Part shown: positions 21,988-30,127 of the stretch, piece by piece | How positions within the stretch are numbered: the first letter of the stretch is position 1 | Layout: the number at the start of each line of letters is the position of its first letter | From: Candidatus Neomicrothrix sp. | GTDB lineage: Bacteria; Actinomycetota; Acidimicrobiia; Acidimicrobiales; Acidimicrobilacustridaceae | DNA length: 30,127 nucleotides | Reading direction: 5' to 3' | Assembly (NCBI GenBank): GCA_043740665.1 | Contig: JAYUBX010000095.1 | Location: 1-30,127 of the forward strand | Program-made: the position numbers and the translations under genes | Notes under the pieces: model-generated | Seen by the model: the letters and a program-made list of their open reading frames with translations, nothing else | Databases searched by the model: none | What the model was told of the DNA's origin: nothing

Positions 21988-22446
21988 TCACGACGGGCTC
22001 GGATCGGGCTGCTCGGTGACGAATCGCTCGATGGCGAGCACGGCGACCCATCGGGGCACGTCGAAGTGGTCGGCCACCTCGGCGGCGTCGACCCCGCCGC
22101 CGTCCGCGGCGCGCTCGGCGATCAGGGCCCACAGCTCGGCCGACGGCACCAGACGCCGGGCGACCTCGCGATCGACCGCTCGTTCTTCGCGATCGACCAT
22201 GAGCAGCCAGGCCGGTGGCGCGTCGACTCGCTCGACGGCTCCGCCTCGCTCGTGGTGCACCAGTTCGTGGGTGAGCACCGCTCGCTGATCGACAGCAGGC
22301 ATCGTCGGGTCGACGACGATGACGGCGATTCCGTTGCGCCAGGCGTGGAAGCCGCCGCCCATCAACGCGGCGACCGGGTCAAGGGCGAGGATCAGGTCGT
22401 CCTGCTGCTCCGCCGCCCGCCACGGATCGAACCGTTCCTCGGTCAT
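21988..22446 (-). CDS. ImmA/IrrE-family HExxH metallopeptidase (putative anti-repressor)
   Basis: RAVLTHELVHHERG, EERAVDREVARRLVP, C-terminal HTH-like AEVADHFDV. TAGCGT 6 nt before ATG. Confidence 0.78.
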   Translation of the reverse strand: MTEERFDPWRAAEQQDDLILALDPVAALMGGGFHAWRNGIAVIVVDPTMPAVDQRAVLTHELVHHERGGAVERVDAPPAWLLMVDREERAVDREVARRLVPSAELWALIAERAADGGGVDAAEVADHFDVPRWVAVLAIERFVTEQPDPSPS

Positions 22447-22527: not shown

Positions 22528-22989
22528 TCAGGGTCGGTCGCGTCGATCGACCAGAGCCTCGAGGTAGCCCTCGAGCATGGCCTGTTCGAGATGGGTCAGC
22601 GTCAGGTATTTCCGGGCGAAGCCGGCGGGGAGCGAGGTGTCGCGTCCGTCAGGCGGCCCGCTGGCGCTGATGGGGTTGTCGCCCCGCGGCCGAGGGATCA
22701 GGATCGGGAGCGGCGGCGGGGGCGGCTTGAGTTGACTGCGGTCGACCAGCTCCGGCGGGTCGTCGCCGGCGAGGATGGTCGCGAACGCATCGATGGGCCA
22801 GCTGAAGGCCCGGCAGACGCCGCGCATGGTGAGTTCCTGATAGCGGTCTCGTCCGGCCGCCTCGACCAGCCGCCAGGTAGCCAGCGAAACGCCGGCGTGT
22901 TCGGCTGCTTCCTGCTGGGTCCAACCCAGGTGCAACCGCTGATTTCGGACCGCATGGCCCACTCGTTCCCAGGCGTCACTTGTCGTCAT
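22528..22989 (-). CDS. XRE-family HTH repressor (phage/ICE immunity-repressor-like), no S24 peptidase domain
   Basis: WERVGHAVRNQRLHLGWTQQEAAEHAGVSLATWRLVE, Pro-rich linker, short helical C-terminus. ATG 22989 preferred over 23052. Confidence 0.82.
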   Translation of the reverse strand: MTTSDAWERVGHAVRNQRLHLGWTQQEAAEHAGVSLATWRLVEAAGRDRYQELTMRGVCRAFSWPIDAFATILAGDDPPELVDRSQLKPPPPPLPILIPRPRGDNPISASGPPDGRDTSLPAGFARKYLTLTHLEQAMLEGYLEALVDRRDRP

Positions 22990-23140
22990 CTCACCAGTAT
23001 CGCGGAAATGATCAGCTATCGCTGGCTGGAGTGCTGGGGGAGGGGGATTCATGGGCTCAGGTGTACCACTCCGCCAGTCAGTAGCAAAGATGAAAATCTA
23101 CCCTTGACTACACGTATCTAGCTTTGCTTAGCTCTTGATC
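22990..23140. promoter_or_regulatory. Divergent promoter/operator region between the repressor and the Cro-like gene
   Basis: AT-rich 23080-23140. Rightward TTGACT 23104-23109, leftward TAGATT (23095-23100, minus strand), inverted AGCAAAG/CTTTGCT (23083-23089 and 23122-23128). Confidence 0.55.
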
Positions 23141-24028
23141 GTGCAACTGAATCGCCATGCCCTCCGGGTCATTCGTCAGCGGTCGGGTCTCACGGTTTCG
23201 GCGCTCGGTCGCCGCGCCGGGGTCAGCCAGCCTCACCTGTCCAACATCGAGCGCGGTCGGCGCCAGGCATCGCCCGAACTGATCGGTCGACTCGCCGCCG
23301 CCCTGCGCGTGCCGATCGTGGCCCTGCTGGCCGAGCTCGACCCCGATCCCGATCCCGAGCCTGATTCGCAACCCGATGGCGGGACCGTGCCCACCTTCTT
23401 CACCCCGGCCGGTCCGCCGCCGGGGTGGTCCTGTCGCCGACGCCGTCCTGGCTCGGCACAACAGCAAGGGAGACCCATGCAACGTTCAACCACACGTCCG
23501 ACCAGTCCACCGACCAGCGTGCAGATGCCCGGGGCGGCGACGCCGTCCGGCCGTTCGCATCGTGGGGTCGGGATGGCTGCGGCCGGCCTGCTGTCCGCCG
23601 GTGCCGTCCTCGCGGCCATGACCCCGGCTCAGGCCGAGACCTACTACACGGGCCAGTGCACCCAGAGCGCCAGCGTCATGGGTGAGACCTACTACCGGGT
23701 CTTCCAGGCCCGCGTCGTGGGTGGCGTCGAGTCGGGCACCGGCAAGTACGTCTGGGACCACTACGACTACAAGTACACCATCGACCTGCACCTCACGAGC
23801 GGTCCGTCGAGCAACGAGCAGGTCAGCTTCACGAGCGGGTACTCCGACGGGTTGTCCAACCCGTGGAACTCGCCCGACAGCCACGGCAGCAGCGGCGACT
23901 GGATCGGCGAAGGCAACTGGAAGGGCGCCAAGTCCTATTGGGGTTCCACCAAGGTGAAGTTCTACGTCGCCTTCGACATCCCCGGCACGCCCGACACCCA
24001 TTGCAACGCCTACACCGCGCTCGTCTGA
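23141..24028 (+). CDS. Cro-like XRE HTH protein reading in frame into the downstream secreted protein (fusion ORF)
   Basis: LRVIRQRSGLTVSALGRRAGVSQPHLSNIERGRRQASPELIGRLAAAL, then a DPDPDPEP linker and no in-frame stop until 24028. Start GTG 23141 or TTG 23135. Confidence 0.7.
   Translation: MQLNRHALRVIRQRSGLTVSALGRRAGVSQPHLSNIERGRRQASPELIGRLAAALRVPIVALLAELDPDPDPEPDSQPDGGTVPTFFTPAGPPPGWSCRRRRPGSAQQQGRPMQRSTTRPTSPPTSVQMPGAATPSGRSHRGVGMAAAGLLSAGAVLAAMTPAQAETYYTGQCTQSASVMGETYYRVFQARVVGGVESGTGKYVWDHYDYKYTIDLHLTSGPSSNEQVSFTSGYSDGLSNPWNSPDSHGSSGDWIGEGNWKGAKSYWGSTKVKFYVAFDIPGTPDTHCNAYTALV
23477..24028 (+). CDS. Secreted protein precursor (Sec-type signal ending AQA; 130-aa mature part with two Cys), function unknown
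   Basis: SD AAGGGAGA 23466-23473 before ATG 23477; h-region MAAAGLLSAGAVLAAM then TPAQA|ETYY; strongly C/G-ending codons in the mature part. Confidence 0.8.
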   Translation: MQRSTTRPTSPPTSVQMPGAATPSGRSHRGVGMAAAGLLSAGAVLAAMTPAQAETYYTGQCTQSASVMGETYYRVFQARVVGGVESGTGKYVWDHYDYKYTIDLHLTSGPSSNEQVSFTSGYSDGLSNPWNSPDSHGSSGDWIGEGNWKGAKSYWGSTKVKFYVAFDIPGTPDTHCNAYTALV

Positions 24029-24031
24029 GCC

Positions 24032-25234
24032 ATGACCGAGCCGTCCCGATCCCGGGTCGCAACCGCCCGATCCGCGGGCTCGTCGCCGCGGATCGGGCGG
24101 GTCGGCTTGCTCGCCTGGCTCGTCGTCCCCGTGCTGCTCCTGTCCGGCCTCACCCAGTGGCAGGTCCACCCGGTCGAACAAGGGTCATCCGGCGCGACCG
24201 ATCCGAGCGCCGATGTTGCGCCGCTGGCTCGGCTGTCGTTCGGCTCGGTCACTCGCGGTGGGGCCATCTTGTTCACGGTCGCGCAGCCCGTTCATCTGCG
24301 GTCGATGGCCGCCGACGGGTTGATGCAGTGGCAGCGTGACCTGACCGACGGCGACTATGTCACCTGCGGTCCCTGCCCGTCCGCAATCATCGCCCGACCC
24401 GACGGCCCACCGCGCACCGTCGCCGCTGACGGCACCGAAGGACCAGGTCCGGCTCTGCTCGGCGACCACCTGGTTGCGACGACGTCGTTGGTCGGCGTGG
24501 TGTTGGCGGCGGGCCGCACGGATGGTTCGGTCGATTTCTACTCGCCCACCAGCGCGGGCCTCGTTCTGGCTGGATCGGCGTCCGACGCCGGACTCGATCG
24601 GGTGCTGGTCGTGGTGACCGCCGCCGACCGGGGCGGTGCCGTCACCATCATGCGGACGTCGGCCGATCCGCTTCGACAAGGCGAGTTCGAAGTCGAGCAC
24701 GTGACCGCGACGGGCACCCACACCACGACGGTGCCGCTCGATGCCCCCGGGTCGCACCCGCGTCCGTGCGCGGTCGCCGACGCCGAGATCGTCGCCTACG
24801 TGCAACTCGACCCGGGCCCGACCGCCGACGGCACGACGCACGTGGTGGCCGACCGGGACGGCCATCGCCTGGTTGATGCGCGGGTACCGGGAACGTTCGA
24901 CTCGTGTGCGGTCGGGCCCGACGGGGCGGTGCTCAGCGCCACCGCCAATGGCGCCGACGGCGACCTGACCCGTACCCGGGTCGATGTGGCGTGGGTCGAC
25001 CTCGGGGGTCGAGTTCGGGCCACGGCCACCGAGCAGGTCGTGGCCACGTCGGCCTCGGTGGCACTCGACGCCGCCACCGGCCGGGTCGCCATCGCCGGCG
25101 GGCCGGGGCCGGCCGTGGTCGTCGATCCGTCCGGCCGCCACGAACGTCCCTCGGCTCTGGCCGTCGCCTTCGACGACACCGGCGGGATCTGGTGGGCCCA
25201 GTCCGAATCGCACGTCACCAGAGAGGACCCCTGA
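24032..25234 (+). CDS. Membrane-anchored or exported hypothetical protein, beta-rich (possible propeller)
   Basis: One hydrophobic segment (VGLLAWLVVPVLLLSGL), then a soluble beta-strand-rich domain with CGPC and two further Cys; 3 nt after the upstream stop. Confidence 0.7.
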   Translation: MTEPSRSRVATARSAGSSPRIGRVGLLAWLVVPVLLLSGLTQWQVHPVEQGSSGATDPSADVAPLARLSFGSVTRGGAILFTVAQPVHLRSMAADGLMQWQRDLTDGDYVTCGPCPSAIIARPDGPPRTVAADGTEGPGPALLGDHLVATTSLVGVVLAAGRTDGSVDFYSPTSAGLVLAGSASDAGLDRVLVVVTAADRGGAVTIMRTSADPLRQGEFEVEHVTATGTHTTTVPLDAPGSHPRPCAVADAEIVAYVQLDPGPTADGTTHVVADRDGHRLVDARVPGTFDSCAVGPDGAVLSATANGADGDLTRTRVDVAWVDLGGRVRATATEQVVATSASVALDAATGRVAIAGGPGPAVVVDPSGRHERPSALAVAFDDTGGIWWAQSESHVTREDP

Positions 25235-25235
25235 C

Positions 25236-25859
25236 ATGCCCCCCATGATCGAAATCGAAGCGCTCGCCATGGCATCCCGGCGTCGCCACATCGGCCCGTT
25301 CGCCCTGCAGGTCGAGGCGGGCGAGACGGTCGGGCTGGTCGGCCCCAACGGGTCGGGCAAGACCACCTGTATTCGTCTGACGCTCGGACTCGACCGATCC
25401 GATTGCGGCCGCAGCCGCATCCACGGTCGGGTCGTCTCCCCGTGGCAGCCGCCGACGGGCGTAGGCGTCGTGCTCGAAGCCGACGGCTGCTATCCGTGGT
25501 TGTCGGGACGCGAGAACCTGAGACTCTTCGCCCAGGTCCTGGGCCGGCCGGAGGTCGCGATCGATGCCGCCCTCGACCAGGTGGGGTTGACGCCCGCGGC
25601 CGACCAGACCGTGCGTCAGTATTCGCGTGGCATGCGTCAGCGGCTGGCGTTCGCCCGGGCGTCGCTCGGTGGTCCGTCGCTCTTCGTGCTGGACGAGCCG
25701 ACGGTCGCGCTCGATGGCGACGCCGGCAGCTGGCTGGTCGAGCTGCTCAACGCCCATGCCGGCGCGGGCGGGGCCACCTTGGTCGCCAGTCACGACGAGA
25801 CCTTTCTGCACGCGCTGGGGGCCCGCATCGTTGCCGTCGACGACGGGCGCTGCGGGTGA
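25236..25859 (+). CDS. ABC transporter ATP-binding protein
   Basis: GPNGSGKT, YSRGMRQ, FVLDEP, ASHD. Confidence 0.92.
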   Translation: MPPMIEIEALAMASRRRHIGPFALQVEAGETVGLVGPNGSGKTTCIRLTLGLDRSDCGRSRIHGRVVSPWQPPTGVGVVLEADGCYPWLSGRENLRLFAQVLGRPEVAIDAALDQVGLTPAADQTVRQYSRGMRQRLAFARASLGGPSLFVLDEPTVALDGDAGSWLVELLNAHAGAGGATLVASHDETFLHALGARIVAVDDGRCG

Positions 25860-27148
25860 TCGCGCTCGGGCTGGCCCGAGCCCAGCTGGCGCGCCCGACC
25901 GTGCGAGCCGTCGTGGTGGTGGTGGCGATGGCCGGTGCGTGGTTCGCTTGGTCACCCGGCACCCGATTCGGGCTGGCTGGCGCCTATGGCGGCTGGCTCT
26001 ACGCGTCGATCCGACTGCTCGACGTCGGCCTGGTGCCGTTGGCGGTCGTCGGTGCCCTGTGCGGGGCCACGCCACGTGATCGTCGGCTCGACGAGCAGCT
26101 GCGCGCCGCCGGCCTGGCACCGCACCAGGTGGCGAGAGCGGTCGTGGCCTCCGGCGCGCTGGTGGCGATCGCCGTCGCCGTCGGCTTCGTGGTGGGCGCG
26201 GCGGCGGGGGGTTGGCTCCGAGCCCTCATCGGCGGAGGGTCGTGGTGGGCCGGACCCGCCGCATCGGCGGGGGTTGCCACCGATGGGCTGCACGATGTCC
26301 GTTTGGTCATCGCCGTCGGCCTGGTCGGCGCCATCGGCGCCCTGCTGGGGTGGATCGTCCGACGTGACGACGCCGCCGTCGGCCTGGCGGTCGTGCTCGG
26401 TATCGGCTACCTGCCGGAAGCCTCGGCCGTCTTCGGTCGGCTGCCCGTGACCATCAATGGGTTGGCCTTCAGTCCGCTCGGCGCAGTGCGGGTGGCAACG
26501 CTCGGCGACCGAGGCCTGGCTGCGGCCGGCTACACGCGTCCGGCCACGGCGTGGCCGTTCGGGCTGGTGCTGGTGGGCTGGTGCGTCGTGCTCGTCGCCT
26601 TCGCTCTGCCCGGTCGTCGTCGAGCTCGGGTGGTCTCGCCGTCAGCATCCCGGTCGTCCCTCCCAGTCGCACGGATCGTCACGGTCGTGGTCGCGGTGAT
26701 GGCCACGGTGGGGTTCGGTTGGGTGATCCCAGGTCGGGCGGCCGACGCCTTGCCCTGGCGATGGCAGCGGTCATGGCGCCAGTCCGAGCAGGCCGGCTGG
26801 TCGTCTCCTCGGAGCGTTGACCGGTACCTGCAGGCATTGCGTTCCGACCCACCGGGTAACGTGAGCGAACTGCTGCTCACGACCGACGCAGTGAGCCCGG
26901 CGGTCGCCGGTTCGATCCCACGGGCGTCGCACGTCGAGCGGCAGTCAGTCGCCTCCATGGCCGCCCCGGATCACGTGGTGGTGCGGCTCGATTTCGCCGC
27001 GCCGATCGTGTCGGGGTCGACCGCGTTCTCGACCTACCTCGTGCGGTTCACCTTGCAGTCCGATGTCGACCAGCACTGGCACATCGTCGGCTCCGAAGGC
27101 CCGGTGGCGTCGACGCCGGCCGCGGCCGCCGGGTCGGGTGGTTCGTGA
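25856..27148 (+). CDS. ABC permease-like membrane protein with extra C-terminal soluble domain
   Basis: GTGA overlap with the ATPase; about seven TM segments followed by a ~140-aa hydrophilic domain. Confidence 0.72.
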   Translation: MIALGLARAQLARPTVRAVVVVVAMAGAWFAWSPGTRFGLAGAYGGWLYASIRLLDVGLVPLAVVGALCGATPRDRRLDEQLRAAGLAPHQVARAVVASGALVAIAVAVGFVVGAAAGGWLRALIGGGSWWAGPAASAGVATDGLHDVRLVIAVGLVGAIGALLGWIVRRDDAAVGLAVVLGIGYLPEASAVFGRLPVTINGLAFSPLGAVRVATLGDRGLAAAGYTRPATAWPFGLVLVGWCVVLVAFALPGRRRARVVSPSASRSSLPVARIVTVVVAVMATVGFGWVIPGRAADALPWRWQRSWRQSEQAGWSSPRSVDRYLQALRSDPPGNVSELLLTTDAVSPAVAGSIPRASHVERQSVASMAAPDHVVVRLDFAAPIVSGSTAFSTYLVRFTLQSDVDQHWHIVGSEGPVASTPAAAAGSGGS

Positions 27149-28017
27149 TGTCGACGCGTCCGGTCGAGCTCGATGAGCGTCCCCGGACCGCATCGGCGGT
27201 CGGCCCCGCGCCGTCGCTGGTGGCCTGCTCCCGCGCCCTGATCCCGGTCGTGGGCCGCACCCGTCGCTGGTCGGCCGCGGTGGTCGCGGCCTGGATCGTG
27301 GGCGCGGCGGCAGGCATCGCGCCCACCGCCTTCCAGGGTTATCGGGCCCCCGGCCTGGTGGCCTCGGCGATGTGGGGCCTGGTCGCCGTCGCCTTCCTCG
27401 CGCCGCTGGTGATCACGCCGATCGTGGCCACGGTGGTCTGCGACGACGACCACCATCAGGTCGCCTACGCCTGGCACGGGGTGGGCGTGAGTCCGGTTCG
27501 TCGGATGCTGGCCCGCACCGCCACCGCCGCTCGGTTGAGCCTGGGCTTGCTGCTGGTCGGGGCCGTCGCCGGCCTGGCCGCCGGGGTGGGCCTGGCCGCC
27601 TCCGGACGCGATCCGTTGGTGCTCGGCTGGTCGGGCGCACCAGGGGTGGTCGGACTCGCAGTCGGCGCGGCCGTGTTGCTGCTGGCCTGGGCGATCGGTG
27701 GACTGTTGGCGGCGGCGGCCGTCGACCCTGCCCGCGCCTTGCTGGCCCTGGTGCTGACCTGGTTGATCACCGGGGTGGTGGCCTCGCTGGTGCACTTCTC
27801 GCCCCATCTCGGGTTGGTGTTCCGGCTGACCCCATGGGCGGCGCTCTGGCCGTTCGACCCCGGGTCGTCGGACTCGGCCCAGTTCGCGGCCGCCATCCCG
27901 CCGGGGGCCCGCCTGGTCGGGGGCGCGGGGTGGCTGGTCATCCTGGCCGCCATCGCAGCCTGGCGCCGCCGCTCGACGCCCTACCCGAGCCCGGGCGAGC
28001 GCCGACGCCGCCACTGA
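27148..28017 (+). CDS. Second ABC permease-like membrane protein
   Basis: TGATG overlap; about six TM segments; FRLTPWAALWP loop typical of ABC-2-like permeases. Confidence 0.72.
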   Translation: MSTRPVELDERPRTASAVGPAPSLVACSRALIPVVGRTRRWSAAVVAAWIVGAAAGIAPTAFQGYRAPGLVASAMWGLVAVAFLAPLVITPIVATVVCDDDHHQVAYAWHGVGVSPVRRMLARTATAARLSLGLLLVGAVAGLAAGVGLAASGRDPLVLGWSGAPGVVGLAVGAAVLLLAWAIGGLLAAAAVDPARALLALVLTWLITGVVASLVHFSPHLGLVFRLTPWAALWPFDPGSSDSAQFAAAIPPGARLVGGAGWLVILAAIAAWRRRSTPYPSPGERRRRH

Positions 28018-28049
28018 TCCACCGACCTGATCCCCACGATCTGATCCAC
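28014..28049 (+). repeat. Three CTGATCC direct repeats at 13-14 bp spacing upstream of the GNAT
   Basis: Copies start at 28014, 28027 and 28041; copies 1 and 3 extend to CTGATCCAC. Confidence 0.7.
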
Positions 28050-28082
28050 GCGATATCCGTCCACGTTCGACAAGGAGCCACC

Positions 28083-28790
28083 ATGACCCAGGACGACACC
28101 AACCCGACTCGACTGGCCGACCCCCATCTCGCCGACCCCCATCTCGCCGACGACCCGGTCGAGGCCCCGCTCCAGTGCACCACCGGTCGCTGGATCAGCC
28201 TGCGCCCCGTGCGACCCGCTGACTATGACTTCATCCGGTCGGCCGAGCTGTCCGACGACCTCGGCCTGCGCTGGCGACACCGCGGGGCCACCCCGAGTCC
28301 CGAGGCCTTCGCTCACACGCTGTGGGCCGGCGTGCTCACCCAGTATCTGGTCGTGGCCAACGCCGATGACCGCGTGCTGGGCCTGGTCTGCGCCTACGAC
28401 GCCGATCTGCGGGCCGGTACCTGCTTCATCGGTTTCGCTCGGTTCGATCGCCGGGACCGCTCGCCGGGACTCGTCGAGGGCGTGCTGCTGCTGACCGACC
28501 ACCTCTTCACCCACTGGCCGTTTCGCAAGCTCTACGGCGAGAGCCTCGAGTTCAACCTGCCCGAGTTTGGGGCCGGGCTGGGCACGCTGCTGGTCGAGGA
28601 GGGTCGACTCCGCGAGCACATGTTCGCCGGTGGCCGCTACTGGGATCTCTGCTATCTCGCGCTCTATCGCGACACTTGGCTGACCCATCGAGACTGGCTG
28701 CTGCCTCGGATGCCGGTCGGCCATGGCGACGGTGAACCGACCGACCGCCCGACCCGGCTGTTCGTGTCGATCCCCACCCCCGCATCGTGA
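28083..28790 (+). CDS. GNAT-family (RimJ/RimL-like) acyltransferase
   Basis: ISLRPVRPADY, HLFTHWPFRKLY, EEGRLREH...GRYWD...LY. SD AAGGAG 28072-28077. Confidence 0.85.
   Translation: MTQDDTNPTRLADPHLADPHLADDPVEAPLQCTTGRWISLRPVRPADYDFIRSAELSDDLGLRWRHRGATPSPEAFAHTLWAGVLTQYLVVANADDRVLGLVCAYDADLRAGTCFIGFARFDRRDRSPGLVEGVLLLTDHLFTHWPFRKLYGESLEFNLPEFGAGLGTLLVEEGRLREHMFAGGRYWDLCYLALYRDTWLTHRDWLLPRMPVGHGDGEPTDRPTRLFVSIPTPAS
28116..28151 (+). repeat. 15-bp tandem repeat (x2.4) encoding ADPHL-ADPHL-AD in the GNAT N-terminus
   Basis: GCCGACCCCCATCTC at 28116 and 28131, plus GCCGAC. Confidence 0.9.
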
Positions 28791-29047
28791 CCGCCGTGCC
28801 CGACTTCGACGAGGTCGCCCGAGCCGTGGCTGATCGGCTCGGCCGATCGCTCTCCGACCTCACCCCCGACGCGCTGCTGGCCGCGGCGGTCTGTCGCGAC
28901 GCAACCGATCTGTACCAACTGCACCTGGTTCTCGACGGTTGGGTTCCCGGCTTCGAGCTGCCCGAGCAACTCGAGCGAGCCACGTTGGGTGATGCCCACT
29001 ACTACCTGGTCGCCCGCCTGGCCCAGATGGCGAGCGCGCCGACCTGA
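28787..29047 (+). CDS. Acyl-carrier-protein-like small protein with Ala at the expected phosphopantetheine Ser
   Basis: 86 aa, helical, acidic; ACP-like layout (FDEVARAVADRLG...LTPDALL...CRDATDLYQL...ATLGDAHYYL); GTGA-coupled to the GNAT. Confidence 0.55.
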   Translation: MTAVPDFDEVARAVADRLGRSLSDLTPDALLAAAVCRDATDLYQLHLVLDGWVPGFELPEQLERATLGDAHYYLVARLAQMASAPT

Positions 29048-29059
29048 CGAGCGCGCTGA

Positions 29060-29437
29060 CTAGCGCGTTTTGTCCAGGAACCGTTCGGCGTCGACGATCA
29101 CTCGGGTGACCCGGCCGACGGCGACCAGGCCTCGCTCATCGTTGACCGACACGGTGAAGGTGATGCGGCGGCCGGCGATCTTCTCGACGCAGGCCTCGGT
29201 CGTCACCGTGTGGCCAGTCGCGGTGGGGGCGAGGTGGTCGATCTGCACCTTGGTGCCCACCGTGGTCTCGCCCGGTTGCAGCTCGCCCTCGACGGCGACG
29301 AACGAGGCTTCCTCGCACAGGGCGATGACTCGGGGCGTGGCCAACACCGGTACCGAACCGGTGCGCATGGCGAGGGCTGTGTCGTCGTCGACGACGAGAT
29401 GATCGAGCGTGGCACTCAGGCCGGGTGTCACGGGCAC
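29060..29437 (-). CDS. FlK-type (fluoroacetyl-CoA thioesterase-like) hotdog thioesterase
   Basis: VLATPRVIALCEEA (Thr/Glu), TVGT.V.IDHLAPT (His). TATCGT 6 nt before GTG 29437. Confidence 0.88.
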   Translation of the reverse strand: MPVTPGLSATLDHLVVDDDTALAMRTGSVPVLATPRVIALCEEASFVAVEGELQPGETTVGTKVQIDHLAPTATGHTVTTEACVEKIAGRRITFTVSVNDERGLVAVGRVTRVIVDAERFLDKTR

Positions 29438-29562
29438 CGCGGTACGATAAGCAACCCGCTGCCTGTCCGGCCAATGCACCCGATTCGTCTGGCTTCGCGC
29501 CTGGGTCAGGGGCACACCGGTCGTCGGCTGGTTCGCTCGACCAACGCCAGAGAGGCCATCGC

Positions 29563-30127
29563 GTGATCGAAGAGTCTGTCATCAGCCGAACGCTCGGCAC
29601 CGCGCTCAACACCGGCGGCGACTTCGCCGAGATCTTCGTGGAGGACAAGCGGTCCTCGTCGGCGGTGCTCGACGACGGCAAGGTCGAAGAACTGACATCG
29701 GGTCGCGATCGGGGCGCAGGTATCCGGGTCGTCGTGGGCGACACCACCGGCTTCGCCCACACCGCCGATCTGAGCGAGTCGGGTCTGGCGGCGGCCGCCG
29801 CGGCCGCCGCCGCCGCGGCCCGTGGCGGCGGCGGTGGCACCCGCACGATTGATCTGACCCGTCGCACCGTCCCGGCCCCGAACGTGGTCGAGATCATGCC
29901 GGGCGACGTGCCCAAGGCCCGCAAGGTCGAGTTGCTGATCCGGGCCGACGAGGCCGCCCGAGCGCAGGGCGGGGCCATCAGCCAGGTGTCGGCCAGCTAC
30001 GGCGACAGCCGTCGCCGCATCCTGGTGGCCAACAGCGACGGCCTGCTGGCGGCCGACGACCAGGTCAAGACCTTCTTCGCGGTGTCGTGCATCGCCACCG
30101 GCGATACCGGCATGCAGACCGGCCGCG
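29563..30127 (+). CDS. tldD: TldD/PmbA-family metalloprotease, truncated by the window edge
   Basis: Not in the ORF track. Manual translation from GTG 29563: GGDFAEIFVED...LDDGKVEELTSGRDRGAGIRVVVGDTTGFAHT...ILVANSDG. Confidence 0.9.
   Translation, partial: MIEESVISRTLGTALNTGGDFAEIFVEDKRSSSAVLDDGKVEELTSGRDRGAGIRVVVGDTTGFAHTADLSESGLAAAAAAAAAAARGGGGGTRTIDLTRRTVPAPNVVEIMPGDVPKARKVELLIRADEAARAQGGAISQVSASYGDSRRRILVANSDGLLAADDQVKTFFAVSCIATGDTGMQTGR

Follow-up and report, generated by a model that had tools for sequence, protein, structure and literature searches.

The stretch of DNA analysed here (the window, 30,127 nucleotides (nt) with a GC content of 68.6%) is contig C95 (JAYUBX010000095.1) of Candidatus Neomicrothrix sp. 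assembly GCA_043740665.1. This is a metagenome-assembled genome (MAG) of 692 contigs, 87% complete, whose nearest named relatives are 'uncultured Microthrixaceae' and 'Acidimicrobiales' MAGs. On its forward strand the window carries one open reading frame (ORF) in which a Cro-like helix-turn-helix (HTH) DNA-binding domain is joined to the precursor of an exported protein. The frame is open from TTG 23135 or GTG 23141 to TGA 24026-24028 with no internal stop, and from the GTG (23141..24028, +) it encodes 295 amino acids (aa): HTH, disordered linker, export signal and beta-sandwich domain, in that order. The same layout is seen in homologues of 285-326 aa. An earlier interpretation of this DNA from its letters and ORFs, the sequence-only reading, had reported the shared stop-free frame, an HTH followed by a signal-peptide-bearing protein with its own Shine-Dalgarno sequence (SD) and ATG at 23477, and an out-of-frame TGA at 23362 after a CCCGAT repeat. 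All were borne out: the frame 23141-24028 is uninterrupted, the HTH was recognised by Pfam, the SD is AAGGGAG at 23466-23472, the signal at 23477-23635 has n-, h- and c-regions and ends A-Q-A before E-T-Y-Y, and the TGA is present as described.

The XRE/Cro-type HTH lies at 23159..23338 (+) and was defined by Pfam profiles, an AlphaFold2 (AF2) model and alignment of homologues. Profiles HTH_31 (4.8e-13, 49.6 bits, cut-off 27) and HTH_3 (2.7e-12, 46.9 bits, cut-off 23) matched residues 9-68 of the 297-aa frame counted from TTG 23135, and about 33 columns of the domain are invariant in an alignment of 14 sequences. The linker (23330..23476, +) begins with the acidic and proline-containing run DPDPDPEPD and continues as a Pro/Gly/Arg/Ser-rich stretch; it is weakly conserved and varies in length. 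The repeat (CCCGAT)2-CCCGAG at 23343-23360 encodes D-P-D-P-D-P-E-P-D just past the final HTH helix, and the TGA at 23362-23364 is out of frame with the fused ORF. By codon position, the GC content had a coding-like pattern across the HTH, which became very pronounced from 23585 onwards (third-position GC 0.9-1.0). Over 23375-23530 the second position was richest in GC and the third was weaker, which fits a Pro/Ala/Gly/Arg/Ser-rich disordered segment rather than another frame. In the AF2 model, built with the 14-sequence alignment, the HTH consisted of five helices with a predicted local distance difference test score (pLDDT) of 86-90. Residues 66-163, between the HTH and the beta-sandwich at 166-295, scored below 50. 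The model thus predicts two folds, the HTH and the sandwich domain, on a disordered tether of about 100 residues.

The export signal (23477..23635, +) is 53 aa long, with a long n-region, a basic pair, an Ala/Gly-rich h-region (23564-23620) and the c-region T-P-A-Q-A. The succession of ...R-S-H-R, an h-region of 18-19 aa and T-P-A-Q-A before E identifies it as a probable cleavable signal peptide of the signal peptidase I type. Neither Ala of the AxA site varies across 14-17 sequences. An R-R pair is present in 13 of 14 sequences, about 22-24 residues ahead of the cleavage site; the window copy has H-R in its place, and its 98%-identical relative has R-R. The h-region is the sole hydrophobic segment of the fused protein and was modelled by AF2 with low confidence; its Kyte-Doolittle mean over 19 aa is 1.78, whereas the transmembrane (TM) helices of the permease encoded downstream reach 2.2-2.6. 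From these features the signal looks Tat-like (twin-arginine translocation). In a scan with NCBIfam, TAT-signal models included, no model matched it. Genes for TatC and M50 site-2 proteases, and two or three for signal peptidase I, occur in the same genome, which shows no more than that such machinery exists there. The n-region holds a V-Q-x-P motif that hardly varies (T-S-V-Q-M-P at 23519-23533 in the window). It recurs at the N-terminus of P0032, a relative without HTH, and as V-H-L-x-P in P0029; its conservation suggests that the n-region does more than targeting.

The mature exported domain (23636..24025, +; 130 aa) is predicted by AF2 to be an all-beta sandwich and belongs to an orphan family. 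Two Cys residues are invariant, and the motifs SPD-x-H and AFD-x-P...DPHC are present. Folded alone it gave 10 strands with a pLDDT of 82.9 and a predicted template modelling (TM) score of 0.79. With this model Foldseek found no match in the PDB at E below 0.3. PDIP38, FnBPA, ApaG and the MspA rim were considered as fold matches and rejected, the best value (VIA Z 7.2, all-against-representatives) being generic beta-sandwich background. In the ESM Atlas the domain matched unnamed clusters only (TM-scores 0.51-0.55; feature scores at most 0.77). Pfam and NCBIfam scans gave no match for the secreted protein, and just 21 clusters among 1.84 billion representatives match the family.

The fused frame appears to have two starts. 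Upstream of the outer one lies a putative promoter (23103..23133, +), recognised by its conservation, with the -35 element CTTGAC (23103-23108), a spacer of 18-19 nt and the -10 element TTAGCT (23128-23133). CTTGAC and T-T-A-x-x-T are invariant and constantly spaced in 10 aligned loci, in all of which a (G/A)TG start follows 7 nt past the -10 element with no SD upstream; the distant locus L022 has the same layout. A generic sigma-70 scan and an intrinsic terminator scan of 22900-24100 called none. The outer start is placed at GTG 23141, correcting TTG 23135, since the TTG lies just 1 nt past the -10 hexamer. A start 7 nt after the -10 element and without SD implies a leaderless transcript, and the mRNA most likely begins at or next to GTG 23141. 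Leaderless transcripts are common in Actinobacteria.

The internal start (23466..23479, +) consists of the SD AAGGGAG, a 4-nt spacer and ATG 23477. In nine lineages, L022 included, a GGAG, AAGGA or GAGGA core is found 4-7 nt ahead of the ATG. The residues encoded by the SD vary (QGR, QGA, KGA, RGA, QGT, WSD, KRN), as does the linker around them. Retention of SD and ATG under such variation points to selection on the RNA, that is, on initiation. Gene callers picked the internal ATG in five relatives. These comparative data agree with internal in-frame initiation from an SD and ATG, and a short secreted product is very likely also made. As the distant relatives are plain secreted proteins without HTH, the internal ATG is, on this comparison, the ancestral start of the secreted protein. 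A GC-rich hairpin without U-tract lies at 23425-23465, 10-25 nt 5' of the internal SD, and most loci have an equivalent, L002, L006, L013, L022 and L028 among them. The fold z-scores of these hairpins (-2.5 to +0.1) were not significant, and no structure common to the loci was found. L001, L013 and L028 share a conserved nucleotide sequence over about 50 nt ahead of the ATG.

The fused frame is not peculiar to the window. A word-indexed search with the 183-aa part as query returned 13 clusters. Eight of them are proteins of 285-304 aa carrying HTH Pfam domains, the closest 98% identical. The other five were annotated as 178-198 aa, and each was examined on its contig. In three (P0004, P0008 and P0010, at loci L013, L016 and L029) an upstream HTH was present in the same open frame, the gene callers having picked the internal ATG. 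P0005, on a contig of 897 nt, was left unjudged. The remaining one, P0007 (L028), is the sole true split: its 106-aa HTH stops at a TGA 32 nt ahead of the secreted-protein ATG, in a different frame. The linker of L028 is too divergent for a DNA alignment to locate its frameshift. The frame is also open in P0001-3, P0006, P0009, P0011-13, P0026 and P0027 and in loci L002, L003, L006, L013, L016, L022 and L029, and among species-representative genomes of this genus the fusion is present in G002, G004 and G006. It extends to the more remote P0027 (L022), which has 42% identity in the exported domain and 60% in the HTH. About 15 homologous lineages thus keep both parts in a single frame, down to 42% identity.

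The length of the linker changed repeatedly while the frame was retained. In 14 full-length sequences there are 11 distinct linker lengths of 34-84 aa, all in frame, and the linker is unalignable while HTH and exported domain are conserved. If changes were blind to frame (1/3 each), the probability that at least 10 of 11 would be multiples of three is about 1e-4; the statistic allows one exception among about 11 length changes. We regard the in-frame linker lengths as strong but not overwhelming evidence for selection on the frame. Stops in the linker numbered 0, 0 and 7 in the three frames, one alternative frame also having none in 475 codons.

Two related MAGs carry broken copies. In G001 and G010, few-contig 'MFD...bin' MAGs of 56-63% completeness, the frame breaks within the signal-peptide region, past the internal ATG, and the break would harm both products. 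The breaks, of a single base, lie at about 1650-1700 in L004 and about 1690-1720 in L005, and other genes of such loci are also broken, namely that of the 400-aa protein in L004 and the M78 and XRE genes in L011 and L012. The breaks in L004 and L005 are probably indel errors of long-read assembly. After its break the HTH frame of L004 runs on, for 288 residues. Public annotation of the locus is inconsistent, with proteins of 147, about 180 or about 300 aa; for the P0011 cluster, from another MAG, NCBI and JGI call a 147-aa 'hypothetical protein' from a Met inside the signal peptide. Gene callers give either a 295-aa or a 180-aa protein at this locus and never both, a lesson for its annotation.

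Divergently from the fused ORF, across 88 bp, lies a gene for an XRE-family repressor-like protein of 174 aa (22528..23052, -; HTH_31 28.4 bits), whose synteny extends to all related loci. Downstream of it comes a gene for an ImmA/IrrE-like HExxH metalloprotease of 152 aa (21988..22446, -), likewise syntenic in related loci; the protein has a HELVHH motif and matched Peptidase_M78 with 19.7 bits, under the cut-off of 22. In the intergenic region about half of the aligned loci share GGTGTACCAC at 23064-23073, near the start of the leftward repressor gene; it may serve as an operator or as the leftward promoter. Inverted repeats were sought in the 88 bp; one weak 9-nt pair was the only one found, and no operator was defined. 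Downstream, the remainder of the operon (24032..28017, +) comprises four genes: a 400-aa protein with a single N-terminal TM segment (24032-25234), an ATP-binding cassette (ABC) ATPase (25236-25859; ABC_tran 92.8 bits, with best NCBIfam matches to the CcmA, DrrA and lantibiotic-protection types), a permease with about seven TM segments (25856-27148) and a second protein with about seven TM segments (27145-28017). Pfam and NCBIfam scans found nothing for the 400-aa protein, the permeases or the two ORFs within 28083-29044; for these two, Pfam was searched up to an E of 0.1. On the right flank are a FlK-type thioesterase gene (29060-29515, -) and an open TldD/PmbA frame (29425-30126, +), both common to loci that lack the operon. 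The two ORFs overlap by about 90 nt. The TldD domain is reached only at residue 68 of its frame, and the true TldD/PmbA start is therefore probably downstream of the overlap.

The history of the locus was followed by a tblastn survey across all retrieved loci and by a tree of the 174-aa repressor. The left flank is constant: an abhydrolase gene, the opposite-strand M78-like HExxH and 174-aa XRE genes, and then the HTH. Gene order in the operon is common to L013 and L017-L023, and also to L024, L026 and L030, where the secreted protein heads the operon without any HTH. In L024 a stop lies 19 codons 5' of the ATG and no HTH gene is nearby, and L030 is likewise without an upstream HTH. The operon partners in these HTH-less loci have weak but significant homology (E 1e-6 and 9e-5), the ABC ATPase being about 50% identical. 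Distant relatives (P0029, P0030, P0032, P0025 and others) are secreted proteins of 140-190 aa with no HTH. The opposite arrangement is found in G003, G007, G008, G011, G012 and G013, where the HTH ends after 71-74 residues (118 in L008) and the operon is missing. In such loci the HTH (74 aa in L007) is followed directly by the FlK-type thioesterase gene and tldD. Both flanks are shared, so that about 5.7 kb (approximately 23350-29050) is a presence/absence polymorphism in the genus; comparison of the window with L007-L012 puts its left junction just past the HTH domain and its right junction ahead of the thioesterase gene.

In the repressor tree the fused state occurs in four clades, the outgroup L022 among them. 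Operon-less L008 groups with fused L002 (support 97/96), operon-less L007, L009, L010, L011 and L012 group with fused L003 (98/99), and split L028 is the sister of fused L016. This distribution, with the HTH-only state nested twice among fused loci, argues that the fusion is old. The most economical account is that the fusion arose early, that the operon was later deleted at least twice with the HTH left in place, and that one lineage (L028) was split. Wherever HTH and exported protein are both present, they are fused in all cases but one. The HTH is conserved and survives alone, and it is therefore likely to be functional within a repressor/protease/Cro triad.

These results suggest a nested gene with two products, a reading that we consider probable. 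A single leaderless mRNA would be read from the Cro-like XRE HTH, in frame through the disordered linker of 34-90 aa, into the precursor of the exported protein. The short form, a 183-aa precursor made frequently from the SD-led internal start, would be abundant, exported through its Tat-like or Sec (general secretory) signal and cleaved at AQA|E. The long form, of 295 aa, would be rarer, with its signal about 140 residues from the N-terminus, and its HTH would stay at the cytoplasmic face, held to the membrane through the export signal. With the divergent XRE repressor and the ImmA/IrrE-like protease, the HTH would be the Cro-type arm of a switch for the operon, and, being joined to an exported protein, it would depend on export for its location or lifetime. 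We infer from the comparisons above that initiation is leaderless, that both starts are used, that the long form is tethered to the membrane, that signal peptidase cleaves the signal, and that there is a regulatory effect. The proposal of a real two-product gene, made in the sequence-only reading, gained comparative support from the frame kept through linker indels and from the internal SD and ATG kept as RNA. The mechanism offered there, in which signal peptidase would free a membrane-tethered HTH from the effector domain and so couple export to transcription, is plausible. A more specific version, which we hold to be rather unlikely, is that the long form is a transcription factor borne by a signal peptide. 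The HTH-linker-signal remnant would stay in the membrane after cleavage until an intramembrane protease released or destroyed it. The Cro-like activity would then report export of the operon's first product, and the short form would set the ratio of cargo to sensor. If the long form is functional, the locus would be a very compact coupling of ABC-operon transcription to the export process, and a natural case of a signal peptide with a second job.

Other explanations of the fused frame were weighed against the nested gene. The sequence-only reading had allowed for a recent 1-bp deletion or an assembly error that merged two genes, and the fragmented state of the MAG and the frame breaks in this gene in two related long-read MAGs would accord with such an artefact or private mutation. 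This was refuted because the fusion recurs in numerous assemblies made independently and on different sequencing platforms, at identities between 98% and 42%. In L004 and L005 the breaks fall past the internal ATG, within the signal peptide and outside the linker, and a stop equivalent to that at 23362 was looked for in the homologues and was present in none. An artefact is thus improbable in the extreme, and by these comparisons the fusion is genuine and not a sequencing error. It is chromosomal, has been maintained in evolution, and is common to nearly all related uncultured Microthrixaceae (Acidimicrobiia). The TGA at 23362 might instead serve a programmed ribosomal frameshift at the CCCGAT repeat, giving a short HTH protein. 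The hexamer repeat directly precedes the TGA, and a product ending ...DPDPDPEP would be similar in length to the standalone HTH proteins of 71-74 aa. Frameshifting was rejected, since the repeat is not conserved and the stop changes position: stops lie 0, 10, 24, 34, 39 or 40 codons past the HTH, or there is none. A slippery heptamer is absent, hairpins of the region were not significant, and an Rfam search gave no element, its one match being a chance miRNA match with an E of 0.63. We consider frameshifting very improbable. Out-of-frame TGAs of the NNT-GAN type occur at varying positions in the acidic linkers of homologues, and on this comparison the TGA at 23362 is incidental. A further possibility is that the ATG is unused and the anchor uncleaved, the gene having as its single product a classical membrane-anchored one-component regulator with HTH, TM helix and extracytoplasmic sensor. 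The architecture is similar to the N-in/C-out arrangement of ToxR, CadC, RodZ and BcrR, and basic residues do precede the hydrophobic segment. It is disfavoured by the conservation of the SD as RNA although the residues change, and by the character of the signal peptide, with its short and weakly hydrophobic h-region, invariant AxA and Pro in the c-region. The HTH-less homologues, moreover, are ordinary secreted proteins with the same signal, and we regard a single anchored product as quite doubtful.

The main rival to the nested two-product gene accepts the fusion as real in the DNA and takes the covalent link to be functionless; we judge it unlikely, though less so than the other alternatives. 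The HTH would have lost its stop upstream of the operon, the long product would be clipped in the linker or be a tolerated by-product, and the two halves would act independently. Each half does stand alone elsewhere, the HTH in HTH-only loci and the secreted protein at the head of HTH-less operons; L028 is a natural split variant, and the linker is disordered and unconserved. As out-of-frame stops are rare, frameshifts produce long junk products, as in L004 with its 288 residues, and this alone could select for the frame. Neutrality, however, predicts that most lineages would by now be out of frame or stopped, like L028, and the frame survived at least 10 changes of linker length, down to 42% identity. 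Several observations also weigh against the nested two-product gene. L028 is split by its stop 32 nt upstream of the internal ATG and by a change of frame, and two lineages dropped the operon yet retained the HTH; this split and the survival of the HTH alone indicate that the covalent link is dispensable. CCCGAT-like hexamer repeats bias indels to multiples of three, which weakens the frame statistic and is the reason why that evidence is held below overwhelming. The stop-free linker is uninformative at this GC content. The promoter was recognised by conservation and was missed by the generic sigma-70 scan, and the window's own signal has H-R and not R-R. The short form suffices to explain why AxA and the signal peptide are conserved.

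Membrane-anchored one-component transcription regulators such as ToxR and CadC, and the XRE-type RodZ and BcrR, share with the long form an N-terminal cytoplasmic DNA-binding domain, basic residues with one hydrophobic segment, and a C-terminal extracytoplasmic domain; the likeness, taken from their general description, is of architecture only. The long form differs from them in its cleavable-type signal with an RR-like motif, Ala/Gly-rich h-region and invariant AxA. This signal appears to be inherited from a free secreted protein whose internal SD and ATG are retained, and the outer domain is an orphan with no match in PDB, Pfam or NCBIfam. The regulatory part of the locus resembles the repressor-protease pairs ImmR/ImmA of ICEBs1 and DdrO/IrrE, which have a divergent Cro-like gene: an XRE repressor gene followed by a HExxH M78-like protease gene is divergent from a small Cro-like HTH. 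Unlike ImmR/ImmA, the locus is not on a mobile element; it is chromosomal and syntenic, lying between the abhydrolase gene and the thioesterase and TldD genes across the clade. Unlike both pairs, its M78 match is under the Pfam cut-off, and the genes putatively under control encode an exported protein and an ABC transporter.

The long and short forms of CheA and the SpaO/SctQ proteins are N-terminal proteoform pairs made by internal in-frame initiation (PMC13515050). The present gene has in common with them a single frame with two starts, the inner with its own SD, and forms expected to differ in location or function. It differs in that the long form adds a whole DNA-binding domain before an export signal and the outer start is apparently leaderless; it is known, moreover, from sequence alone. 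In Staphylococcus aureus ayrRABC, an XRE-type repressor is the first gene of a membrane-protein and ABC-transporter operon that secretion stress induces and that is tied to signal peptidase (PMC4542188). The XRE-led ABC operon here is comparable to it in logic only, as AyrR, in contrast to the fused HTH, is a separate soluble protein. The published literature, as far as covered, which was incompletely, yielded no case in which an XRE domain precedes a cleavable signal peptide and the internal start is kept, and no matching family was found. Membrane-anchored regulators and nested protein isoforms are thus already known separately. What appears to be new at this locus is that a DNA-binding domain precedes an export signal of cleavable type, that the exported protein keeps its ancestral start within the frame, and that the arrangement has been maintained for long.

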